Shown here piece after piece: positions 596 through 14,467 of a stretch of DNA of 64,000 nucleotides. Under the pieces are notes generated by a model that saw nothing but the letters and a program-made list of their open reading frames with translations, searched no databases and was not told the origin of the DNA. The stretch is from an uncultured Bdellovibrionales bacterium (GTDB lineage Bacteria; Patescibacteriota; Minisyncoccia; Moranbacterales; UBA1568). A program made the translations under genes and the position numbers. The stretch lies in assembly GCA_964436855.1 (NCBI GenBank), contig CAYTED010000006.1, positions 19,681 through 83,680 of the forward strand. Reading direction: 5' to 3'. Position 1 is the first letter of the stretch, and each line of letters opens with the position of its first letter.

Positions 596-2692
596 ATGGA
601 TCATAGTAAGCACGCTAGTCATGTTACCCACAACATGACCCGGATGGGTTTTTTGGAGAAATTAAAAATGAGCATGTCGATGACAATGGGCATGGATCAT
701 ACTGGTCTCGCTGGACGAGAAATGGCTCGTCTCATGGAAATAGATATTCGAAACAAGTTCTTCTTTGCTCTCGTATTCACCATACCGATCATTTTCTACT
801 CGCCTCTCGGCACGGAGTTTCTCGGTCTCAACCTCCCATCTCCACTCCCGCTGCCGTGGCTTCTTTTGCTTCTCACCACGCCGGTATTCTTCTACTCCGG
901 TTGGATTTTCCTCTACTCGACATATTTTGCACTGAAGGAGAGGACACTGAACATGGCCGTGCTTATCGCGGTTGGTATTACGGCCGCCTATGGCTTCAGT
1001 ATTCTGCTTACCTTGATTGGGAGCACTGATTCTTACTATGAGGCGGCTGCCATGCTTATCACCTTTGTCCTTTTTGGGCACTGGATGGAAATGAAATCCC
1101 GTCGAGGAACGACTGACGCGCTGAGAGCCCTCCTCAACCTTGTGCCACCTCAAGCTCGTATCATACGCGACGGTAAGGAGGCATTAGTGCCGACAAGCGA
1201 AGTCAAAGTAGGTGACACGCTTCTCTTGAAACCAGGTGATAAAATACCGGTGGACGGCGAAGTCTCCGAAGGAGAATCGGCCGTTGATGAATCACTGGTA
1301 ACGGGCGAATCCTTTCCGGTGACAAAAAAACCAGGCGATACGGTCGTGGGTGGCTCTATCAATCAGAATGGGTCACTGCGTTTCCGAGCGACGAAGGTAG
1401 GTGATGAAACGGCTCTCGCGCAGATCATGAAATTGGTAGAAATAGCTCAGAACTCAAAGGCTCCTGGGCAAAGAATCGCCGATAGGTTTGCAAAATATTT
1501 GGTCATTGGAGCTATCGGGTCAGGACTGCTTGTTTTTATCATCTGGTATTTTATTGTCGGTTCACCACTTCTCTTGGCGCTCTCATTCGCGATTGCTACA
1601 GTTGTAATTGCTTGTCCGGACGCACTGGGATTGGCCACCCCGACGGCAGTAGCAGTTGGAACAGGTCTTGGTGCCAAGCACAATATTCTCATCAAAGATG
1701 CTCCGACCCTTGAACAAGTCTCAAAAATTCAGGCTATCGTACTCGATAAAACCGGTACGCTTACTGAAGGAAAGCCGAAGGTAACAGATGTGATTGTTTC
1801 AAGCGGTTTCTCAGAAGAACAATTGCTCGCTGTGGCTGCGGTTACAGAAATGCGTTCCAATCATCCACTCGCACGAGCGATTATCGGAGAGGCTGAATCG
1901 AGAGGAATTGCTTTGACGCAGACGGTAGAAAACTTCATGTCTCTTGCTGGACACGGGATTGAGGCTCAGGTGGACGGTCAGTCAGTATCAATCGGGACGC
2001 GAAAGCTTTTAGCTCTTCGAAACGTTCCCTTGGGAGATATTGAGGGATGGGTAAAGCCACTTGAGGCTGAAGGCAAGACGCTCATGTTCATATCCGTCGA
2101 TAAAAAGGCAGCCGGTGCCATCGCAGTCACTGATCCAATCAAAGCAACAGCCAAACAGGCTATTGATGGGATGAAGCAGCTCGGGATTGAAGTAGCTCTT
2201 ATTAGTGGCGACAATCAGAAGACGGTTGAGGTCATTGGAAAAAAGCTCGGGATTGATCGTCTGTTTGCGGAAGTCTTTCCTGAAGACAAGGCTCGCTACG
2301 TTGAATCGCTCCAAAAGGAAGGGAAATTTACAGCGATGGTAGGAGACGGAATTAATGATGCCCCAGCATTGGCTCAGTCGGATGTCGGTATTGCAATTGG
2401 TGCCGGTACGGATGTAGCGATCGAAACGGCAAAGGTGGTGCTGATGAAGTCTGATCCTCTCGATATACTCCGGGCAATAACCCTGAGCAAGGCGACAGTT
2501 CGCAAGATGAAGCAGAATCTTTTCTGGGCTTCCATCTACAATATTCTCGCCATACCGGTCGCCGGTGGCATTTTGTATCCAAATTTTGGCATTATGCTTC
2601 GTCCAGAATTTGCAGCTCTTCTCATGAGCGTTTCGTCGATTATCGTTGCTACTAATGCGGTGTTGCTGAAGCGGGTGGAATCGGAGCTCTAG
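596..2692 (+). CDS. P1B-type heavy-metal (probably copper) translocating ATPase
   Basis: Has DKTGTLT phosphorylation motif, GDGINDAPAL hinge, a CPD variant of the CPx motif in TM6 (IACPDALGLATP), a His/Met-rich N-terminus (MDHSKHASHVTH..MSMSMTMGMDH) and no CxxC HMA domain. Confidence 0.9.
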   Translation: MDHSKHASHVTHNMTRMGFLEKLKMSMSMTMGMDHTGLAGREMARLMEIDIRNKFFFALVFTIPIIFYSPLGTEFLGLNLPSPLPLPWLLLLLTTPVFFYSGWIFLYSTYFALKERTLNMAVLIAVGITAAYGFSILLTLIGSTDSYYEAAAMLITFVLFGHWMEMKSRRGTTDALRALLNLVPPQARIIRDGKEALVPTSEVKVGDTLLLKPGDKIPVDGEVSEGESAVDESLVTGESFPVTKKPGDTVVGGSINQNGSLRFRATKVGDETALAQIMKLVEIAQNSKAPGQRIADRFAKYLVIGAIGSGLLVFIIWYFIVGSPLLLALSFAIATVVIACPDALGLATPTAVAVGTGLGAKHNILIKDAPTLEQVSKIQAIVLDKTGTLTEGKPKVTDVIVSSGFSEEQLLAVAAVTEMRSNHPLARAIIGEAESRGIALTQTVENFMSLAGHGIEAQVDGQSVSIGTRKLLALRNVPLGDIEGWVKPLEAEGKTLMFISVDKKAAGAIAVTDPIKATAKQAIDGMKQLGIEVALISGDNQKTVEVIGKKLGIDRLFAEVFPEDKARYVESLQKEGKFTAMVGDGINDAPALAQSDVGIAIGAGTDVAIETAKVVLMKSDPLDILRAITLSKATVRKMKQNLFWASIYNILAIPVAGGILYPNFGIMLRPEFAALLMSVSSIIVATNAVLLKRVESEL

Positions 2693-2712
2693 ATCTAATT
2701 GAGATAAGCGCT

Positions 2713-3297
2713 ATGAAGAAAATAATTGTTATTTTTATTGTCATTCTTGCTCTCATGGAGGGTGTCTCATGGTGGGTTTATAGATCATTATCTTCCAAAA
2801 ACACCGATGAGACTTTTCGGCCATCAGAAGAAAAACAAGTGCCGAGAGCGCTTCCTAGTCCTTCTGTAAGTCAGCAGCCTGTTGAAAAGTCAGAAAGCAG
2901 CTCTTCGAATAACAATCAAACGCTGACTGTTTCTCAGGCTCCTCTTGCTGAAATTCCTCCAAAAGAGACGGGTTCAGGTTTTGGAGACTTCCCTCTTCCG
3001 AGCACGGAAGTGGTGAGTGGCAGAACAGAGCGGACCATCCATATGGGTGTGAGGCAGTATGTATGGGAACCAGCGACTATTACTGCCAAAAAAGGTGAAC
3101 TAGTAAGGCTTATTATCCACAATGCCGATGTAAAGCATGGTCTCGTCATTCCAGACTTAGGAGTGAATCAAGATATTCCTCCCGACGGAGCAATTGTGGA
3201 GTTTATCGCAAGCAAAGTAGGTACTTTTGAGTTCTTCTGTTCTGTTTGGTGTGGTGAGGGGCATATGGAAATGAGGGGTAAGATTGCGATAGAGTAG
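2713..3297 (+). CDS. secreted cupredoxin-fold copper-binding protein (CuA-like motif)
   Basis: Signal peptide or N-terminal TM. The C-terminal H...C-x3-C-G-x-G-H-x2-M (HNADVKHG...FCSVWCGEGHMEM) resembles CuA/cupredoxin ligands. Confidence 0.55.
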   Translation: MKKIIVIFIVILALMEGVSWWVYRSLSSKNTDETFRPSEEKQVPRALPSPSVSQQPVEKSESSSSNNNQTLTVSQAPLAEIPPKETGSGFGDFPLPSTEVVSGRTERTIHMGVRQYVWEPATITAKKGELVRLIIHNADVKHGLVIPDLGVNQDIPPDGAIVEFIASKVGTFEFFCSVWCGEGHMEMRGKIAIE

Positions 3298-3347
3298 TTC
3301 AATAGATAAATAACAAGAAGTCCATAAACACTAATGGAACCATAAAT

Positions 3348-3965
3348 ATGTCAGATCATTGTTGTCCGGCCGATGGAGTAAATCTGTCCGATGAAAAAAA
3401 CAACAAGCTGAAGAGAATGTTTTGGATTGTGCTTGTTCTCAATGCTGCGATGTTTTTTGTCGAGTTTTTCTATGGATTGATTGCTGGTTCAAATGCGCTC
3501 TTGGCTGATTCGCTTGATATGCTGGGTGATGCATTCGTGTACGGTATCAGTCTTCTCGTAGTCACAAGGAGTATCCAGGCAAAAGCAAATGCTTCGCTTA
3601 TCAAGGGCATAGTGACTCTACTACTCGGTCTCTTTGTTGTGGGTCAGTCGGTATACAAGATATTTGTTCCGTCTATCCCTCAAGGTGAAACAATTACGTT
3701 CATCGGTATTCTCGCGCTTGTTGTGAATCTCGGCTGTTTCTGGCTCCTCACGAAATATAAAAACGGCGATCTTAACGTACAGTCTGCCTGGATTTGTTCA
3801 AGAAACGATGTCTTGGGAAACGCAGGTGTCATTATCGCAGGAGTTTTGGTGGTTTATTTCGGTTCGATGTGGCCTGACATTATCATCGGCCTTGGCATTT
3901 CAATGGTGGTGCTTAGCTCGGCCATTGGGATCATCAAGGAGTCGGTAAGCCAAAGAAGGATTTGA
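3348..3965 (+). CDS. cation diffusion facilitator (CDF) family transporter, membrane domain only
   Basis: Six predicted TM helices and the CDF signature LLADSLDMLGDA in TM2. At 205 aa it lacks the usual cytoplasmic C-terminal domain. Confidence 0.65.
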   Translation: MSDHCCPADGVNLSDEKNNKLKRMFWIVLVLNAAMFFVEFFYGLIAGSNALLADSLDMLGDAFVYGISLLVVTRSIQAKANASLIKGIVTLLLGLFVVGQSVYKIFVPSIPQGETITFIGILALVVNLGCFWLLTKYKNGDLNVQSAWICSRNDVLGNAGVIIAGVLVVYFGSMWPDIIIGLGISMVVLSSAIGIIKESVSQRRI

Positions 3966-4029: not shown

Positions 4030-4200
4030 AAAAGAGACAAGAAGCTGTCTTAAATGGTAAAATGATACAAGGGTCGTCCCATGTCTCATTTGTCTCGTTT
4101 TATCCTCAAAACCGCGACCCGAGAGCCTCAATTCACTCGTCGGCCAAGACCTCCAAGAAATCCCTCAACGGCTTGATTTCTCAAAGTTCTAGACCGATGA
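4030..4200. repeat. conserved recombinase 3'-flank repeat, copy 1 (candidate att/recombination site with multiple TGTCTCA/TGAGACA subsites)
   Basis: About 93% identical over ~143 bp to 13719-13860. Contains five 7-8-bp TGTCTCA/TGAGACA motifs in direct and inverted orientation and a GGGTCG..CGACCC stem. Abuts the recombinase stop codon. Confidence 0.7.
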
Positions 4201-5706
4201 CGCCCGCCAAAATTCGGAATCAGAAGAAACGGACAAAGCGGGGTCGCGCCGAAGGCGCGACACTAATGCATTCCCCCCGCCGAATCCAGAATCCAAAAGG
4301 GTTTTCCACGCTCCGCGTGGCTCAAAAAGTACGGTTCGATCCTTAATTTGAAAGTTCGAACCGACTTTTTTGAACAAATGAAGATTTTCTTCATTTGTTC
4401 CCTCGTTTGTCAATTCCATACTGGATTTTATGAATCTATCAGCAAGTTCGAACCGATTATGAGATTTTTTCTCAAAAGATGATAATTTCTCTTTGAGAAG
4501 CTGTTTTTGACACATCAGCTTGTTTTTAGAATCACGATATTCGTCTAGCGAAAGTGCGTTCTCTAGGTAAGCACTCATCAGCTTCTCAATTTTGGAATCC
4601 AAAAGAGAAATTTCATCTTTTGTTTTTTGAGAAAAAATCTCACTCGATTGGACTTCTGATTGCCGATCTTTCTCGTTTTCGGCAATCATCCAGTTTGCCC
4701 AATCGAGTGGCAAAGAAACTTTTTGTACTTCCGTTCTGATTTGAGAAGTTATGATTTCCTCGCGAACATATTTTTGTTCACAAGGATTTTTCCGTTTAGT
4801 ACAGCGGAGATAGTTATGACCTTTCTGTGTTTCGGTAGTAATGAAGTAACCACATTCTCCGCAACGGAAAAATCCTCTGTATAGATAATATTTCAAACCT
4901 TTTCCCTTCGGCTTACTTTTCCTCATCATCACTTCTTGAACGGAATCAAAAAGTTTCTTTGTGATAATCGGTTCATGCTTACCCTCAAAAATCTCTCCGT
5001 TATATCGCATTAGTCCTGTGTAGATAGGATTTTTGAGGATTTGCTGATAGTTCGACACCGCAAGTTCCTTTCCGCTTTTTCGCCTCAATCCAAGTCCGTT
5101 AAATTTATCTCGGATTTGATGCAAAGTGAACGACCCTGTTGCGTATGCCTCAAATGTTTTTTTGATAAGCGGAGCTATCTCTTTGTCGGGAACAATGCCT
5201 TGTCCTTTTACATTCACATATCCAAGTGGAGACATTTGAGGCCATATACCTTCTTTCACTTTGTTGCGATGACCTCGTTTGATATTTTCCGACAAATTGT
5301 CCACATAATACTTAGATTGCGAAAAAGCGATTGAAAGCATGAATTTGCCTTGCGGTGTCGGATCACACCAGAAAGTTGGAAATTTTAGCTCGGCAATCTT
5401 TCCCGTATCGAGCAAATAGATAATTTTTCCACCATCAACAGAATTTCTCGCTAATCTGTCGGGATGCCAAGCTAAAATTCCATTTGCTTCACCTTGCTCG
5501 ATACGGAGAAGCATTTCATTAAATACTGGCCGACCTGGGACTTTGGCGGTTTGTTTTTCTACGAAAATATCAACAACCTCGATTTGCTCTTTCAACGCGA
5601 GTTCTTTGAGTTCAGCCAGTTGATCTGAAATACTTCTCACTTGCCGATCTTCGGTGTCGGTTGATTTCCTTGTGTAGATGAAAAACTTTCTGGTGTGATT
5701 ATTCAT
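4189..5706 (-). CDS. large serine recombinase (resolvase/integrase family)
   Basis: N-terminal resolvase catalytic motif (FIYTRKSTDTEDRQVRSISDQ, catalytic Ser), recombinase domain and C-terminal zinc ribbon (CGECGYF...CTKRK), 505 aa. Confidence 0.9.
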   Translation of the reverse strand: MNNHTRKFFIYTRKSTDTEDRQVRSISDQLAELKELALKEQIEVVDIFVEKQTAKVPGRPVFNEMLLRIEQGEANGILAWHPDRLARNSVDGGKIIYLLDTGKIAELKFPTFWCDPTPQGKFMLSIAFSQSKYYVDNLSENIKRGHRNKVKEGIWPQMSPLGYVNVKGQGIVPDKEIAPLIKKTFEAYATGSFTLHQIRDKFNGLGLRRKSGKELAVSNYQQILKNPIYTGLMRYNGEIFEGKHEPIITKKLFDSVQEVMMRKSKPKGKGLKYYLYRGFFRCGECGYFITTETQKGHNYLRCTKRKNPCEQKYVREEIITSQIRTEVQKVSLPLDWANWMIAENEKDRQSEVQSSEIFSQKTKDEISLLDSKIEKLMSAYLENALSLDEYRDSKNKLMCQKQLLKEKLSSFEKKSHNRFELADRFIKSSMELTNEGTNEENLHLFKKVGSNFQIKDRTVLFEPRGAWKTLLDSGFGGGNALVSRLRRDPALSVSSDSEFWRASSV

Positions 5707-5929
5707 AGAATTGTATTGGCAAACGAGGAGCCACGCGGAGCGTGGCGAATCCTTGCAGAATCAGGATTTTGTGGGGGGAATACAGAGCAGACGGCGCCTC
5801 GCGCCGACCGCATTTTTGCTTCGGAATCCGATTTCCAATTTTGGCGGTGTTTGTTGGACAAAGTTCGAATGTATTTCGAGCAGAATCCCGAAGACTAATC
5901 GCGCCTCGTCCGCTCCCTTCGGTCGCGGT

Positions 5930-6433: not shown

Positions 6434-6643
6434 ATGGCAAAAACCACAGCACAAAAATTTGGCGAAAATATGAAAAAGATTCGGCTCGAAAAAGGTATGT
6501 CGCAAGGCGACATTTGCCGAGAGTTAGGATTAGATCGAGCATATATTAGCAATGTCGAGAACGGCAAACAAAATCTTACAATTAGCACAATGGAAAAGGT
6601 CGCCACAGTGCTTGGGGTTAGCGTAGATCAACTTTTAAAATAA
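6434..6643 (+). CDS. XRE-family helix-turn-helix transcriptional regulator
   Basis: 69 aa with HTH_3 pattern (GMSQGDICRELGLDRAYISNVENGKQNLTISTMEKVATVLGVSVDQLL). Starts 1 nt after the upstream gene. Confidence 0.85.
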   Translation: MAKTTAQKFGENMKKIRLEKGMSQGDICRELGLDRAYISNVENGKQNLTISTMEKVATVLGVSVDQLLK

Positions 6644-6645
6644 CT

Positions 6646-7500
6646 ATGACGACACAAAATCAAACCATTACCAAAATCGCTATTTTTCAGAAAAAGGAAG
6701 TTCGCAAGATTCTCTATAAAAATGAGTGGTGGTTTTCTGTAATTGATGTTATTGAGGTTTTAACAGATACAGCACGCCCACGAAAATATTGGAGCGACCT
6801 CAAGAAGAAACTAATAAAAGAGGGTTATTCTGAAGTGTCCGAAAATATCGGACAGTTGAAAATGACCTCTCCTGACGGCAAAAAGCGAGAAACTGACTGC
6901 GCGAATACCGAAACAATTTTTCGCATTATCCAAGCTATACCATCACCAAAAGCAGAGCCGTTCAAGCGTTGGTTGGCGCGGGTTGGTTATGAGCGAATTG
7001 AAGAAATAGAAAATCCGGAACTTGCCACAAAACGCACGCGTGCGTTATACAGGGCAAAAGGATATTCAGATGCTTGGATTGAAAAACGAATGCGTGGTAT
7101 TGAAGTACGCGAGACACTTACGGACGAATGGAAAAAACGTGGAGTAAAAGAAGGGCAGGAATATGCAATTCTCACAGCGGAAATCTCAAGAGCAACATTT
7201 GGTATGACACCGAGTCAATACCAAAAACTCAAAGGTTTGAAGCGGGAAAATTTGCGCGACCACATGAATGACCTCGAGCTTATTTTTACAATGCTCGGCG
7301 AAGCCTCAACTACCGAAATCGCTCGCAACAAAAACACCCAAGGATTTTTGGAAAATAAAATTGCTGCGAAAGAAGGAGGAGATATAGCTGGTGAAGCACG
7401 CCGAAAACTTGAAATAAAGAGTGGTAAAAAAGTTTCTACTGGTGAAAATTATTTACCAGAGCCAAAGTCGAATCGCAAGTTAAAGCCAAAAAATACATGA
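6646..7500 (+). CDS. Bro-N domain protein (DinD/phage antirepressor-like)
   Basis: N-terminal Bro-N pattern (ITKIAIFQKKEVRKILYKNEWWFSVIDVIEVL...KYWSDLKKKL), 284 aa. Typical cargo of phages and integrative elements. Confidence 0.8.
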   Translation: MTTQNQTITKIAIFQKKEVRKILYKNEWWFSVIDVIEVLTDTARPRKYWSDLKKKLIKEGYSEVSENIGQLKMTSPDGKKRETDCANTETIFRIIQAIPSPKAEPFKRWLARVGYERIEEIENPELATKRTRALYRAKGYSDAWIEKRMRGIEVRETLTDEWKKRGVKEGQEYAILTAEISRATFGMTPSQYQKLKGLKRENLRDHMNDLELIFTMLGEASTTEIARNKNTQGFLENKIAAKEGGDIAGEARRKLEIKSGKKVSTGENYLPEPKSNRKLKPKNT

Positions 7501-7964
7501 AACTGACATTCGATGAAAACTTGATAGCGGACTACACCAGTGCTTCTCAAAAGGTCAGAGTTTTAAGCGAGAATTTGGTCTTAAAGGAAATATATTGCCC
7601 TAATTGCGGTGAGTCTATTTTTGAATATCAAAACAATAAACCCGTTGCCGATTTTTACTGCTCAAAATGTTCAGAGGATTTCGAACTCAAGTCAAAGCAA
7701 GGAAAATTTGGCAAAAAAGTTTCCGCTGGCGCATATTCCAAAATGATAGAAAGAATCAATTCTGCACAAAAGCCGAATTTCTTCTTCATGGGATATCTGC
7801 TAGAACTTTTGAATGTTAATGACTTCTTTGTTGTTCCAAAACATTTCTTTGTATCTGAAATTATCGAAAAGCGAAAACCATTATCCGAAACTGCTCGTCG
7901 AGCGGGTTGGGTCGGTTCAAATATTCTCTTTTCAAAAATACCGAAGGCAGGGCAAATCTTTTGA
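7497..7964 (+). CDS. DpnI-like (Dam-replacing family, type IIM methyl-directed) restriction endonuclease catalytic domain, lacking the C-terminal winged-helix domain
   Basis: Strong resemblance to the DpnI N-terminal region: YCPNCG...NKPVADFYCSKCSEDFELKSKQG, PNFFFMGY, RKPLSETARRAGWVGSNI (recalled from memory). The ORF stops after ..SKIPKAGQIF; DpnI continues for ~80 aa more. Overlaps the bro-N stop by 4 nt. Confidence 0.6.
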   Translation: MKLTFDENLIADYTSASQKVRVLSENLVLKEIYCPNCGESIFEYQNNKPVADFYCSKCSEDFELKSKQGKFGKKVSAGAYSKMIERINSAQKPNFFFMGYLLELLNVNDFFVVPKHFFVSEIIEKRKPLSETARRAGWVGSNILFSKIPKAGQIF

Positions 7965-8019
7965 TGAAAGCCTGAAGCAACTTGGTAAAGTCCTTGGATT
8001 TGAGGCTTCAAGACCTGAA

Positions 8020-8421
8020 ATGAATGGGGATGGAACTTTAGACGTATGCTGGGAAGATGAGGAAAGGAAAGTTGTTATAGGGTTTGAAAATAAAATTGAA
8101 AAGACTAATAAGATTCTATCTAAACAAGAAATAGACCAGTGTTCTGGACACGGAAACTGGCTCTCACAAAACTACCCTGACTATGAGCGCATCATGTTTG
8201 TTGTTGGTCGAATTGATGGCTATAACGAATTAGCGTCTCCTCTTGATCTAAATATTTTGGAAGTAACAGAAATTGAGAGAGTGTCAGGTGAGATTAAACA
8301 GGTACATGGGAAAAAGGTTTACCCTGAGCAAGTGGACGCATCTCTTGACTCTCAAAAACTAAGGGCTAGTAGTATCTTTCCTCAAGTTAAAGTTTCGTCT
8401 TTACCGAAGATAAAGTGCTGA
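8020..8421 (+). CDS. hypothetical protein (possible replacement C-terminal module for the DpnI-like nuclease; start uncertain)
   Basis: The ORF at 7813-8421 overlaps the DpnI-like gene in another frame; the first in-frame ATG after that gene's stop is at 8020 (MNGDGTLDVCWEDEERK...). No recognisable motif. Confidence 0.35.
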   Translation: MNGDGTLDVCWEDEERKVVIGFENKIEKTNKILSKQEIDQCSGHGNWLSQNYPDYERIMFVVGRIDGYNELASPLDLNILEVTEIERVSGEIKQVHGKKVYPEQVDASLDSQKLRASSIFPQVKVSSLPKIKC

Positions 8422-10458: not shown

Positions 10459-10486
10459 TCACCCGGAAGCACAAGCTTCCGGGTGA
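10459..10486. terminator. bidirectional rho-independent-type hairpin between convergent genes
   Basis: tcacccggaagc-acaa-gcttccgggtga perfect 12-bp stem, between the + gene ending at 10433 and the - gene ending at 10501. A TGTCTCA motif follows. Confidence 0.55.
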
Positions 10487-10500
10487 AAAGTTGTCTCATC

Positions 10501-12525
10501 TCACTTCTTCGAATACCTCGAGTAATACGCGCAGACCTCGGTGTTCGGGTCACCAACCGGAGTGCTCCCGTCCTGTTTGAGGCAGGCCCGGATAGTATGC
10601 CACTGGAGCTTCCAAGCGCTGCTCGAGGGAATCGGCCAGCCGTTACCTTCCATATAGTCCTCGTCGGTGCCGCCGGGAGGCAGTTCCGAGGGATGGATGA
10701 CGCCGTAGCCGATGTTCCACCATGCTCCGCCCGTCGCTACCGGACTCGAGATATGGTAGAGGACGGTGACATCGGTGGCGGGAGCGACCGGACCGTCGTT
10801 TCGCACCCAGATATCGGGCTTGATACGGCTTCCCGTGTTGGTGGTACAGCAGCCGACCTCATCCTGGAACTTGGTGATGACAAGCTTGGGCGCCGGTCTC
10901 GGTTGAAGAACGAAGGAGAGGCTCGTGCAGTTGTTCGTCTCGTCCGATTCGGATACCGCTCCTTGGTAGTCGGCACAGAAGTACGCCGTGCAGGCACCGG
11001 TAACGTTCGGGAGAGTGACAGACCCGATGTTTTCCTCGAACGCGGATGCACCAGCGGAAAGCGTGCTCGCCATGGTTCCGTCATCGGCCAGATAGATGAG
11101 ACTGGTACCGGGGCACTGGACGCTGTAGCTGCTGCGGATATCCGCTGGAGAACCGATATTGCCTTGGTTGGTTACCCAAGCGCCGAACCGAGCCTGATCC
11201 CCTGCATAGTACGGAGCCTGCCGGAACTGGAGGCCGCTTGTCACGAAATCGACGAAGCGCGGATCCTGGTTCTCGATCGGATTGGCCGTCACCTCGAAGA
11301 CCGCTTCGGTACTGCAGTTGTTGCTTTCGTGTTTTTCCTGATGGTCACCTCCGTTGTTGTGATCGTCCCGGGGATGATCGATGCAGTAGACGATGTTGTA
11401 GATGCCCGGTTCCGTGATCCACTGACTGATGACCGTGTTTTTGGTCTCGGTATGGGTGTCACCCGGCTTCAGGTTATCGCACTGCGTCGTCGTACTGTCG
11501 ATCCTCTGCCATGCTCCGTCTCCGCTGTGAACATCCTCCTTGTACCCCTTGGAGAGGTAGAAGTGGCCGGTGATGGTACTGATCTCGCCGCTGACACACT
11601 GGCCGTCGCCGATATTCTCGGACTGGGCTTTGGTATCGAAGGACTCGTTCAGGCCGAACTTGTATATCTCATCGCCCCACGGAGTGACGAGCCAAGTCTT
11701 CCGGACGATGAAGTCGGGAAGATTCGGATTCGGAGCGTCGGCCGCTTCGGTAAGATAACCGGCGCCGGCACCATGCACCGCGAGCGTCGCGTTGCCAGCC
11801 ACTACCGTTCCCGTATAGACATTGATGGTATTGACCGTACCGAACGACTGTATTTCAGCGGCACTCGCTACCTTTCCGAAGAAATTGACGATCGCACGCC
11901 ACCATTTCCGCCACCCATGATCCTCGGGGATTCTTTCCTGGGGATTGGGAGCGCTCGTGATGTAGGTCAGGTTGGATTGCAACTCACCACATACACTTGC
12001 ACCTTCTATCTGGGCATACGGTGGGTTGACGATACGATACCAAGACGTCGCCGTCTCGCAGGAAGCTGTCTTCGGCTCCCAGCAGATGTCGCCCTGACAC
12101 ATAGTCTGCGCTTCAGTTGAGGGATTGTAGGCGTAGTGGGTTTGGATGAAGGCAATTGGGTCAATGAAAGTATTAGTACACTGACTGTTTCCATCGCAAG
12201 GATTGGTCCAGAATGAATTATTCATTCTTCCCCAGCCCTTACCACCACCAGTTGGTGGAATACTATCCCCAATACACGCCGAAATGCAGGTGAGCACCAT
12301 TGGCACTGCCATTCCATATGCCGGTTTTCCCAATTGGTTTTCCGGCATAGACATCGTTACCGGCCGGAAGGGTTCCGCTTGAAAGATGGCCGTATAGCGC
12401 GGTAAACACCTGCCCATCATGCGTCTTATGCTTGATGAACAAAGCACAGTTTCCAGGACCCCATGAGGCATCATCGCAATGGCGTTTGTAGATCGTGCCG
12501 TCCGCAATAGCGTAGACTTTGGCAT
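10501..12525 (-). CDS. large secreted Cys/Trp/Gly/Asn-rich protein domain; N-terminal part of this ORF overlaps the M23 peptidase gene in another frame
   Basis: 674-aa ORF in GC-rich DNA with >30 Cys and many Trp and no recognisable domain. Its first ~85 codons overlap the 12263-12745 ORF, so the true product probably begins at the frameshift point near 12262. Confidence 0.5.
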   Translation of the reverse strand: MPKSTLLRTARSTNAIAMMPHGVLETVLCSSSIRRMMGRCLPRYTAIFQAEPFRPVTMSMPENQLGKPAYGMAVPMVLTCISACIGDSIPPTGGGKGWGRMNNSFWTNPCDGNSQCTNTFIDPIAFIQTHYAYNPSTEAQTMCQGDICWEPKTASCETATSWYRIVNPPYAQIEGASVCGELQSNLTYITSAPNPQERIPEDHGWRKWWRAIVNFFGKVASAAEIQSFGTVNTINVYTGTVVAGNATLAVHGAGAGYLTEAADAPNPNLPDFIVRKTWLVTPWGDEIYKFGLNESFDTKAQSENIGDGQCVSGEISTITGHFYLSKGYKEDVHSGDGAWQRIDSTTTQCDNLKPGDTHTETKNTVISQWITEPGIYNIVYCIDHPRDDHNNGGDHQEKHESNNCSTEAVFEVTANPIENQDPRFVDFVTSGLQFRQAPYYAGDQARFGAWVTNQGNIGSPADIRSSYSVQCPGTSLIYLADDGTMASTLSAGASAFEENIGSVTLPNVTGACTAYFCADYQGAVSESDETNNCTSLSFVLQPRPAPKLVITKFQDEVGCCTTNTGSRIKPDIWVRNDGPVAPATDVTVLYHISSPVATGGAWWNIGYGVIHPSELPPGGTDEDYMEGNGWPIPSSSAWKLQWHTIRACLKQDGSTPVGDPNTEVCAYYSRYSKK

Positions 12526-12745
12526 CCAGGCTACGAGTCATCATATCGGTGCCAATATGGTAAACCCCATCAGGTTCATAGCATCCATCACTGAAACGAT
12601 CCCGACCAAGCCATGTCCCACATTGCTGATCGAAACCTGCTGTGCCGATCGGGTAGAAAAACCCAGTTTCCATTTGATCAAGCGCGTAGGTTGCATTCGC
12701 GAACATGCACAAGATCATGAGGATGAATCTCATCACTGCTTTCAT
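12263..12745 (-). CDS. secreted M23 (LytM-type) metallopeptidase domain protein
   Basis: Signal peptide MKAVMRFILMILCMFANATYA; M23 motifs HIGTDM (HxxxD) and ...GAHLHFGVYWG (HxH). Terminates 3 codons after the HxH motif at a GGGG tract. Confidence 0.75.
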   Translation of the reverse strand: MKAVMRFILMILCMFANATYALDQMETGFFYPIGTAGFDQQCGTWLGRDRFSDGCYEPDGVYHIGTDMMTRSLDAKVYAIADGTIYKRHCDDASWGPGNCALFIKHKTHDGQVFTALYGHLSSGTLPAGNDVYAGKPIGKTGIWNGSANGAHLHFGVYWG

Positions 12746-12857: not shown

Positions 12858-13511
12858 CTATTCAAGAAACTTGAACGTTTTTGTCATACCAAGAAAAATG
12901 GTGTGCTCATCTACGTGTATATTATTGTTTGGGTCATAATATAGTTGAAAACTAATAGTCCAAGCTTTATCGCTATTAAAGAAATATACACTTTTTTCAC
13001 CGAGTACTATCGCTTTTGTGTTATCGACGGATAGTGATGATAAGTTTTCACCGTAACCAGATTTTCTTTTCTGTAAAAACTCCCTGATAGGCATCGCTTT
13101 TTTATTAAATCGATCAGACGACATCACAAGGATAGCCGCACCCGATTCGCCACCTTCTGAGATAGGATAAGTTGTTCCTTCTTTTCCAAAATACAGATAC
13201 TCTCCTTTTATTTCACTATCTTTGTAAGTATTTACGAGCTTCCAGTTTTTAGGAATCTTCATTTCAAATCCCGCCTCTTCGTTTCGATACGTTTGCCAAT
13301 CAGAGGTATCAATGGGAGCGAAAACATACTCTCCATCAATAAGATCCTTTACACTTTCGATCTCATCATCCTTTGCTGATTGTCGTTCGATTTTTTCCGC
13401 TATTTTCTCTGATTGAGACACATTTTTTATCTTCCACCAAAGAATTCCTGTCCCAGTAAGAACGAGTGCAATGAAAACTACAATAGCTATTTTTTTATGA
13501 TTCATAATCAT
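12858..13511 (-). CDS. membrane-anchored hypothetical protein
   Basis: 217 aa with an N-terminal TM (IAIVVFIALVLTGTGILWW) and no recognisable domain. Confidence 0.45.
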   Translation of the reverse strand: MIMNHKKIAIVVFIALVLTGTGILWWKIKNVSQSEKIAEKIERQSAKDDEIESVKDLIDGEYVFAPIDTSDWQTYRNEEAGFEMKIPKNWKLVNTYKDSEIKGEYLYFGKEGTTYPISEGGESGAAILVMSSDRFNKKAMPIREFLQKRKSGYGENLSSLSVDNTKAIVLGEKSVYFFNSDKAWTISFQLYYDPNNNIHVDEHTIFLGMTKTFKFLE

Positions 13512-13689
13512 TCGCTAAAGCCTATCGGATTACTCTACATGATTCTTCATATCAGAAATATAAAGAAAAGATAAAATATTTATAAAATCGCCAATCATGC
13601 TTAGTCTAGCGACTGACTGTATAAAATCATGGAATAACCCTTTTGTCAAAGCCAAAAGCGAATAGAAAACTAGTTGGTATTTCGGTGTC

Positions 13690-13860
13690 GTATGAGACAT
13701 ATAACTGTCTCAGTATGCTAAAATGAGACAAGGGTCGTCTCGTGTCTCATTTGTCTCATTTTATCCCTGAAACCGCGACCCGAGAGCCTCAATTCACTCG
13801 TCGGTCAAGACTTCCAAGAAATCCCTCAACAGCTTGATTTCTCAAAGTTCTAGACCGATG
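13690..13860. repeat. conserved recombinase 3'-flank repeat, copy 2
   Basis: See copy 1. Includes the perfect 12-bp inverted repeat aaaatgagacaa/ttgtctcatttt around gggtcgtctcgtgtctcat and five TGAGACA/TGTCTCA motifs. Confidence 0.7.
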
Positions 13861-14164
13861 TAGCCCGCAGATAGGAACAAGGCAGGTTTTCGGAAACGCC
13901 AAGGAAGGGGCTCTTGGCTTGAACGCGCAATACTTTGTCCGTCAGTGTGAGGTTCGAACTGATGGCACGCATGATCTGCTTCTTGCATCGACTGTCACCG
14001 GTCTCGTAGCGAAAGAGGGCTTGTTTGCGGAACGAATCGAGTGTGTTCTCGAATTCGAACCGATCCGGACGATCTTCTAAGAGTTCTGAAATTTGAGATT
14101 CAATAGACATAATCTGTCTATCCTCACTCTCGGTAGATTTTCTGGTGTAGATAAAGTATTTCAT
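13850..14164 (-). pseudogene. serine recombinase remnant (internally deleted: N-terminal ~35 aa joined to C-terminal ~65 aa)
   Basis: MKYFIYTRKSTESEDRQIMSIESQ matches the catalytic N-terminus of the 4189-5706 recombinase. The C-terminal part (RFEFEN...LRATSV) matches that recombinase's C-terminus (RFELAD...WRASSV). Only 104 aa. Confidence 0.7.
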
Positions 14165-14260: not shown

Positions 14261-14467
14261 ATGGCAACTGAAAACAACATTGGCGAAAATATAAAGAAAC
14301 ACCGCACAAGATTAGGGCTTTCGCAAGAAAATTTTGCCCAAAAGTCTGGTGTGAAGTATACGACTCTTACAAAGATTGAAAGCGGGGTTATTCAAAAGCC
14401 ATCTGTCGTTTTGGTGGCAAAAATTGCTAAAGTCCTCGGTGTTTCTATTGAGGATTTATTGAAATAA
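14261..14467 (+). CDS. XRE-family helix-turn-helix transcriptional regulator (paralog of 6434-6643)
   Basis: 68 aa with HTH_3 pattern (LGLSQENFAQKSGVKYTTLTKIESGVIQKPSVVLVAKIAKVLGVSIEDLLK). Confidence 0.85.
   Translation: MATENNIGENIKKHRTRLGLSQENFAQKSGVKYTTLTKIESGVIQKPSVVLVAKIAKVLGVSIEDLLK

Follow-up and report, generated by a model that had tools for sequence, protein, structure and literature searches.

A recent frameshift most likely splits a secreted M23 peptidase-CARDB gene on a serine-recombinase element of a Patescibacteria genome

In the 64,000-nucleotide (nt) stretch of contig CAYTED010000006.1 (assembly GCA_964436855.1, positions 19,681 to 83,680; here called the window), two overlapping open reading frames (ORFs) on the minus strand most likely represent a single broken gene. 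In related genomes this gene encodes one secreted protein with an M23 peptidase domain and three CARDB domains. In the window it is split by what we consider to be a real, recent and lineage-specific frameshift, and we regard the copy with good confidence as a young pseudogene that would no longer be functional. The first-pass annotation of the window had offered a pseudogene, a sequencing error, phase variation and programmed slippage as explanations for the two ORFs. Of these four the pseudogene fits best, given the single-ORF relatives and the position of the break inside a domain.

The ancestral product would have been a secreted protein of ~750 amino acids (aa), composed of a Sec signal, an M23 zinc endopeptidase, a disulfide-rich linker and three CARDB/immunoglobulin (Ig)-like beta-sandwiches. 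Its gene would be co-transcribed with that of an upstream membrane-anchored PsbP-like partner, and this cassette is the cargo of a 9.66-kb serine-recombinase element found in a genome of the candidate phyla radiation (CPR, Patescibacteria). A net +1 change, probably the loss of 2 nt after Tyr158, puts a TAG codon six codons past the HxH motif. The resulting 160-aa product is devoid of the final strand and helix of the M23 domain and of everything downstream, and the remaining 587 codons are left with neither a signal peptide nor an evolved start.

Reading frames of the broken gene and its orthologs

The broken gene extends from 12745 to 10501 on the minus strand and consists of two ORFs that overlap in different frames:

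12263..12745, minus strand: 5' part of the broken gene, encoding the signal peptide and most of the M23 domain; ends at the premature TAG
10501..12525, minus strand: mechanical 674-aa ORF taken from the program-made ORF list
12266..12275, minus strand: lesion site TATTGGGGAT, with GGGG at 12267-12270; +1 frame shift relative to all orthologs

The first ORF encodes 160 aa with the C-terminus ...GAHLHFGVYWG*, and the NCBI annotation contains the same truncated M23 protein (P0138). A Shine-Dalgarno (SD) sequence, AAGGAG, lies 7 nt upstream of the M23 ATG at 12745. The signal peptide proposed earlier for this ORF was recognized as the predicted segment MKAVMRFILMILCMFANATYA, directly followed by LDQ, with a basic n-region, a hydrophobic core and an AxA-like end that are conserved in the orthologs. 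The long ORF is open in the +1 frame through the end of the M23 ORF (...CIGDSIPPTGGGKGW...) and continues from TATTGGGGAT. Over its first ~86 codons (12525-12268) it reads the M23 gene out of frame, and homology to the family starts at 12267. Removal of a single G from the GGGG run yields a 747-aa ORF. When this fused protein was compared with the window by tblastn, two abutting high-scoring segment pairs were obtained, covering residues 1-159 in frame -1 (E 1.6e-101) and residues 160-747 in frame -2 (E 0.0). The overlap of the two ORFs in the +1 frame at the G run, as first described, was confirmed by both the ORF geometry and these matches. The stop codon lies six codons past the second His of HxH (H-L-H-F-G-V-Y-W-G-stop), not three as stated in the first-pass annotation. 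The description of the downstream part as rich in Cys and Trp held in kind, the enrichment being moderate at 3.1% for each residue.

A search of 5.8 billion protein clusters returned dozens of proteins of 730-785 aa, each with M23 and CARDB, that match the fused query over 100% of its length at 50-76% identity. The orthologs from Moraniibacteriota (for example P0013 and P0055; also P0002-P0012) share the end-to-end architecture at this level of identity as well as the same upstream partner. They are annotated as 'peptidoglycan DD-metalloendopeptidase family protein' and are intact single ORFs, unlike the window copy. In an alignment of 16 sequences the relatives read unbroken through the junction (HLHFGIH-PG..., HLHFGIFLGNSVPG...), and at the DNA level at least 11 full-length loci (L002-L010, L012, L015) are each in a single frame. 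The tblastn comparison found the frame break at HxH in the window and in the near-identical copy L001; L033, which was fetched later, has the identical junction. Each half of the broken gene is thus homologous to contiguous parts of single proteins elsewhere, and judged by these alignments such a split of single-gene homology is far beyond chance. The proposed origin of the two ORFs from a single gene through a frameshift is therefore strongly supported, all full-length relatives being fused single ORFs. When the 160-aa ORF was used by itself as a query, no divergent protein ending at the break came up, and the hits P0269 and P0270 read through it. A DNA pattern scan across the junction in metagenome contigs of the Joint Genome Institute, allowing 1-9 nt between the flanks, gave 0 matches.

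The position of the break relative to the M23 fold was also informative. The conserved C-terminal element of the domain, F/T-x-DP-I/V-x-F-I (FIDPIAFIQ in the window), is encoded in the downstream ORF, and an AlphaFold2 model of mean predicted local distance difference test (pLDDT) score 74 placed two elements of the M23 domain beyond the break, strand 173-175 and helix 196-202. The minimal M23 enzyme of known structure, 9gy1, aligns across the break with HLHFEVRPggGDAIDP. Since the last M23 strand and helix are encoded in the downstream ORF, the break falls inside the catalytic domain, and the 160-aa ORF does not hold, in one frame, the complete M23 fold with the strand after HxH and the DP motif. 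The called start of the 574-aa downstream product (MNNSFW...) is an internal Met that is conserved in the orthologs as a non-start residue (GWGRMNNSQW), and no signal peptide follows it. The locus thus shows the pattern expected of a pseudogene, a frame disrupted within a domain where orthologs are intact, with no evolved restart.

The nature of the lesion was examined in a codon alignment, in which the window reads GGC GTG TAT T-- GGG GAT AGT ATT CCA and L005 reads GGA ATT TTT CTC GGA AAT AGT GTT CCA. The five closest relatives of the M23 part (P0006, P0007, P0019, P0269 and P0270) all have aromatic-x-G-[DNSI]-[ST] at the break. In-frame forms of the junction are TATTGGGAT or the tract plus 2 nt. 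The first-pass annotation had proposed that deleting one G would fuse the ORFs. The restoration of the frame stood, but the lesion itself was probably not one extra G: removing it turns the near-invariant Gly of column 161 into Ser, whereas a 2-nt gap matches L005 codon for codon. Both models give the identical frame change. The alignment is best fitted by a net loss of 2 nt in the codon that follows Tyr158, such as an ancestral TAT TTG GGG GAT or TAT TGG GGG GAT shortened to TAT T GGG GAT, a change that keeps the near-invariant Gly and gives the ancestral reading ...GVY-(L/W)-G-D-S...

Reality and age of the break

The state of the G tract was compared at the level of the assembly consensus in three assemblies. 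The Logan assembly of run SRR12229868 (L033) is 100% identical to the window over 4377 bp, GGGG included. That of run SRR30303844 (L001) has the same GGGG and one single-nucleotide polymorphism (SNP) in 2303 bp (window 11405, non-synonymous). Because the same GGGG is found in the NCBI metagenome-assembled genome (MAG) and in the assemblies of two separate runs, an assembly error is unlikely, and the break is very probably real. A homopolymer error in sequencing or assembly, with an intact fused gene in the true genome, would agree with a break that lies in a short homopolymer of an otherwise undamaged gene, and consensus indels are possible in MAGs. This explanation is nevertheless very improbable. 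It would have to arise identically in the MAG and in at least two runs, one of which carries a SNP elsewhere that suggests a separate population sample; no intact allele of the lineage was present among about 15 billion proteins; and the best-fitting lesion of 2 nt is atypical of homopolymer miscalls. Runs of 4 nt are not error-prone on short-read platforms.

The G run could instead control production of the full-length enzyme, either by programmed +1 frameshifting or by slipped-strand phase variation. The local RNA folds somewhat better than shuffled sequence (z -2.66), the downstream ORF is wholly intact, and a 0-frame TAG follows soon after the shift point. In this stop right after the shift region and in the +1 direction of the frame change the site resembles prfB-type +1 sites, from which it differs in having no conservation among orthologs, no slippery P-site codon and no SD-like stimulator. 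Programmed sites are conserved, whereas no ortholog has a frame break, G tract or stop at this position. The codons GUG UAU UGG GGA UAG would re-pair poorly in the +1 frame (GGA to GAU; UGG to GGG at 2/3 positions), a shift at UGG would delete the near-invariant Gly, the downstream hairpin is not conserved in L005, and by the established prfB rules the region 3-6 nt upstream holds no SD-like stimulator. For a contingency locus the tract is short, being only G4 and at most G6 under one ancestral reconstruction. Known contingency tracts are typically 7 nt or more. Nor did its length vary at the consensus level, all three assemblies being G4 and in the same OFF state. As no relative shares the break or the G tract, both forms of the slippage option of the first-pass annotation are unlikely, and we consider them extremely improbable.

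Functional gene fission, in which the truncated M23 protein and a re-initiated downstream product both work, would echo a natural layout of three genes. In L017 and L019 the partner is followed by an M23 protein of 273-278 aa and by a separately secreted CARDB module of 472-480 aa that has its own signal or lipoprotein peptide with a basic n-region. The 160-aa ORF also keeps all catalytic residues, and an alternative frame encodes MAVPMVLTCISAC, with a lipobox-like ISAC, from an ATG at 12312 just before the junction. The natural splits, however, are at the domain boundary (~320-345) and leave M23 complete with a Cys-rich extension, whereas the split in the window removes the last M23 strand and helix, and the called start MNNSFW lacks a signal peptide. 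Fission is therefore very improbable. The lipobox-like string (12274-12312, minus strand) is an out-of-frame read of the M23 gene and probably accidental; MAVPMVLTCISAC was considered as a new export signal and rejected, since it lacks an SD and a basic n-region and its Cys is preceded by only 12 residues.

The downstream 587 codons contain no further stops. At 174 otherwise invariant alignment columns the window copy shows 2 substitutions of its own (one is a product of the repair), compared with 0-13 in intact orthologs. The ratio of nonsynonymous to synonymous substitution rates (dN/dS) of the module against its nearest relative L011 was 0.061 at a dS of 0.78, with values of 0.088-0.16 for intact pairs. 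Secondary lesions or relaxed selection, as expected of an older pseudogene, were thus not seen, and any pseudogene here must be very young. The absence of further lesions and the low dN/dS indicate that the break is, by these sequence measures, evolutionarily very recent. The closest relative of the M23 part (P0268, 88% identity) is a 138-aa remnant found in three other runs. At its locus (L035) the M23 head ends at residue 137; a second partner-like ORF comes next, and then a gene with a CHAP head on the same module. The nearest sister lineage thus lost this M23 head in an independent event, a deletion. Two different inactivations in the two closest lineages argue that the M23-headed paralog is dispensable and not a conserved regulatory device.

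Several points weigh against the conclusion that the window copy is a young pseudogene. Consensus-level data leave room for a minority intact allele or for tract-length heterogeneity in the population, and the independence of the three datasets rests on the differing run accessions and one SNP. The intact 587 downstream codons fit continued use as well as recent inactivation. The 160-aa ORF keeps H63, D67, H120, H152 and H154, so that residual activity is possible, and the separately encoded M23 and CARDB proteins of L017 and L019 also belong here. With these points included, a recently inactivated gene is still the most likely interpretation.

Domain composition and the module family

The M23 family of Pfam (PF01551, cutoff 28.7 bits) matched the 160-aa ORF with 48.9 bits and the fused protein with 46.7 bits, over residues 63-160 of the latter. 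The motifs HxxxD (H63-IGT-D67), H120 (YGHL) and HxH (H152-L-H154) are invariant in the alignment. CARDB (PF07705, cutoff 22.7 bits) matched residues 510-608 with 33.1 bits. Downstream of the break the following parts were distinguished:

11755..12267, minus strand: rest of the M23 fold, Cys-rich beta region and helical linker (fused residues 160-330), from the AlphaFold2 model and the alignment
11290..11712, minus strand: predicted beta-sandwich 1 (~345-485; PDFIV.KTWL...KHESNNCSTEAVFEV), the most conserved piece of the family, from alignment, AlphaFold2 and Foldseek
10903..11247, minus strand: predicted beta-sandwich 2 (~500-614), with the Pfam CARDB match, pLDDT 84-92
10510..10884, minus strand: predicted beta-sandwich 3 (~621-745), with an invariant GCCT motif and the end RYSKK, from alignment and AlphaFold2

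In the model, residues 160-205 complete the M23 fold and residues 205-320 form the Cys-rich beta region and helical linker; C216, C221, C229 and C252 are conserved in the alignment of relatives. The three predicted beta-sandwiches have pLDDT values of 80-92 in domains 2-3, and domains 1 and 3 are CARDB-like by motif and fold only. Foldseek against the PDB pointed to tandem Ig/MG-like domains at E about 1e-9 (integrin legs, complement MG domains, RbmA, PorU), and no second enzyme was present among the PDB matches. The ~590-aa domain, for which no family had at first been recognized, is thus made up, according to Pfam, the AlphaFold2 model and Foldseek, of the end of the M23 domain, a Cys-rich linker and three CARDB/Ig-like beta-sandwiches. 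The beta-sandwich module may target or anchor the catalytic head at the cell surface or wall, by analogy with modular lysins.

The closest known systems are modular M23 lysins of the lysostaphin, LytM, zoocin A and enterolysin A type (MEROPS M23), which share the N-terminal signal, the HxxxD and HxH motifs and a C-terminal non-catalytic domain. In these lysins the C-terminal domain is presumed to target the cell wall or surface. It is an SH3b or TRD domain there, whereas the window family has the Cys-rich linker and three CARDB/Ig-like beta-sandwiches. The window family further differs in a ~30-residue insertion between HxH and the final DP strand, in the PsbP-like membrane partner encoded upstream and in its CPR host, and this copy is frameshifted.

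The module (residues 331-747) belongs to a small family: at E <= 1e-30, a search of 1.84 billion representatives yielded 67 clusters. It occurs behind an M23 head, a CHAP head (PF05257) or a third, unannotated beta-rich head, and also solo with its own signal peptide. The window module is 85-94% identical to modules on non-M23 heads, while the best full-length M23 ortholog reaches only 76%. The M23 part is closest to the group of P0006, P0007 and P0019. It follows that the gene is a mosaic.

Some further observations were made on the family. The third head type comprises ~290-340 aa with a GLEIDV motif and a beta-rich stretch at ~50-225 in AlphaFold2 models (P0015, P0016, P0017, P0021 and P0115; L011 and L013), and it has no Pfam match. 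Tandem cassettes are present in L035 (87-3400: partner, M23 remnant, second partner-like ORF and CHAP-module gene), and tandem arrays in L011 (6001-8975: two genes with the third head type) and L013 (4218-7652: a CHAP-beta1 gene, a partner and an M23-module gene). Four proteins (P0113, P0114, P0115 and P0120) end directly after beta-sandwich 1. The MAG titles of close relatives conflict, 'uncultured Bdellovibrionales bacterium' (L008, L011-L013, L015, L016, L021, L023-L028, L030) standing against Candidatus Moraniibacteriota. The MAG contig that contains the window measures 84.8 kb and is labelled Candidatus Dojkabacteria; labels across the relatives do not seem consistent and should be treated with caution.

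The GC content of the gene is 55.4% and that of the C-terminal module 58.5% (third-position GC, GC3, 0.74), with 150-bp windows of up to 64%, compared with 47% for the window overall and 30-41% for the immediate flanks. The earlier figure of ~58% GC, well above neighbouring DNA, was borne out by windowed GC and GC3. The horizontal origin that had been read from it was not, the same excess being found in nearly every host genome of the module. For the module of the window (10504-11754) and of L008-L022 the GC content was 0.56-0.61 and GC3 0.65-0.77, versus 0.45-0.57 in host-genome flanks, and the orthologs show the same 5' to 3' rise. High GC was therefore rejected as a sign of recent import, the module being GC-rich relative to its flanks in most loci. 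The excess is a property of the family, possibly caused by exchange between genomes or by GC-biased gene conversion among paralogs.

The cassette, its mobile element and what they may mean

The hydrolase gene lies within a recombinase-bounded element, together with the gene for the partner:

12858..13511, minus strand: partner gene, 217 aa, one N-terminal transmembrane helix, PsbP_2-like domain, motif DTSDWQTYRNEEAGFEMKIPKNW (from locus comparison and Pfam)
13557..13586, minus strand: promoter-like site upstream of the cassette, sigma-70-like at 9/12 positions
10459..10486, minus strand: intrinsic terminator that closes the unit, 12-bp stem with 8 G-C pairs and a T-tract, 15 nt past the stop
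4054..4207, no strand: left direct repeat, overlapping the 3' end of the recombinase gene (repeat comparison, and noted a second time independently)
13715..13868, no strand: right direct repeat, overlapping the 3' end of a recombinase remnant (repeat comparison)
4189..5706, minus strand: large serine recombinase (Pfam Resolvase, Recombinase and Zn_ribbon_recom; PHROG integrase, E 1e-79)

A homolog of the partner, with a motif also given as DTSDWQTYRNEE.GF, is encoded directly upstream of the hydrolase gene on the same strand in at least 18 fetched loci, and the two genes therefore form a conserved cassette. PsbP_2 (PF18933) matched 10/18 of the partner homologs, with a best E of 4e-11 and a weak match to the window copy (E 0.094). 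The partner profile had no match among PDB sequences. The sigma-70-like site is a consensus match only, and such sites are no more frequent in the region than in shuffled sequence. Between the two ORFs no promoter- or terminator-like site was found. The promoter-like site, the strong SD and the single terminator would fit one transcription unit.

The element measures 9.66 kb and is delimited by 154-nt direct repeats that are 92% identical and 9661 bp apart. With an integrase of Resolvase, Recombinase and Zn-ribbon domains at one end and flanking repeats, it has the make-up of an integrative element as far as its sequence goes, and the recombinase-bounded element of the first-pass annotation is real. 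Its other genes encode a small XRE regulator (6434-6643), a Bro-N protein, a DpnI-like protein and a MauJ-like protein, and the cassette is the distal cargo. A prophage lysis module is not an obvious explanation for the cassette: PHROG matches (endolysin/metallo-endopeptidase, E 9e-9 to 6e-4) were confined to the M23 domain, the PHROG scan matched no phage family with the partner or, apart from the integrase, the other cargo, and neither holin nor phage structural genes were found nearby.

Next to the element is a second, degraded copy that contains a recombinase remnant (13850-14164, minus strand) and an XRE gene (14261-14467). The two elements appear to be related and to lie in tandem: in each, the 154-nt repeat covers the 3' end of a recombinase gene on the minus strand, and an XRE regulator on the plus strand comes next. 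An internal deletion has reduced the second recombinase to a remnant, whose N-terminal 29 aa are 66% identical to those of the intact one. The Logan contigs L033 and L034 end at 13799 inside the right repeat, which suggests a branch in the assembly graph (element present/absent or repeated). An inverted repeat of 57 nt, 79% complementary (4267-4323/5728-5784), brackets nearly the whole recombinase gene, with one arm in the 3' part of its coding sequence and the other shortly before its start. A further inverted pair is located at 4204-4224 and 5827-5847; candidate meanings are an invertible segment or recombination sites. The DpnI-like ORF (7497-7964, 155 aa) covers positions 1-157 of 183 of the profile, ends in a double stop and may be a truncated or rearranged restriction enzyme gene. 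It is overlapped in another frame by ORF 7813-8421 (202 aa), which matched no family. A second frameshift at this place, which would be a sign of an error-prone assembly, was considered and rejected, as the overlapping ORF has no DpnI match. Just outside the left end of the element (596-3965) are genes for a Cd/heavy-metal P-type ATPase, a cupredoxin-like protein and a cation-diffusion facilitator, a metal-handling cluster that would be unusual cargo for a reduced CPR genome. In L017 (Candidatus Accumulibacter jenkinsii UW20) a complete CPR-type three-gene cassette is present in the last 13 kb of a 1.81 Mb contig, reflecting either horizontal transfer from CPR or a chimeric contig end. The flanking GC content of 0.52 is low for Accumulibacter.

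A life on other cells is assumed for CPR bacteria. The M23 enzymes that they secrete have been put forward as their lytic tools, though without evidence (PMC9530719, PMC11393006). In the literature on CARDB, M23 and Patescibacteria we found only general mentions of M23 copies, and a search by run and protein accessions found nothing. The swapped heads on a common module and the tandem paralogs in L011, L013 and L035 recall the domain shuffling of Gram-positive and phage endolysins. The window family differs from these in that phage genes are not found nearby and binding by the module is putative. A tentative, and in our estimate unlikely, extension is that the PsbP-like partner and the swappable-head enzyme on its GC-rich module represent an undescribed, mainly CPR cassette family that acts as a diversifying 'polymorphic lysin' system. 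If this were true, recombination and mobile elements would swap the module between paralogs and genomes, and episymbionts would use the products to attack or remodel host walls. An arms race would then explain the frequent gain, swap and loss of heads, of which this frameshift and the L035 deletion would be examples.

The frameshift alone is an ordinary event in an uncharacterized but recognizable kind of enzyme, and in the public MAG the two 'genes' of the annotation should be combined into a single entry that is marked as disrupted. The pattern at the level of the family goes beyond the original finding and is the more interesting lead. The cassette, its interchangeable heads and the repeated loss of the M23 head provide a testable set of candidates for the way in which CPR bacteria may engage host envelopes.

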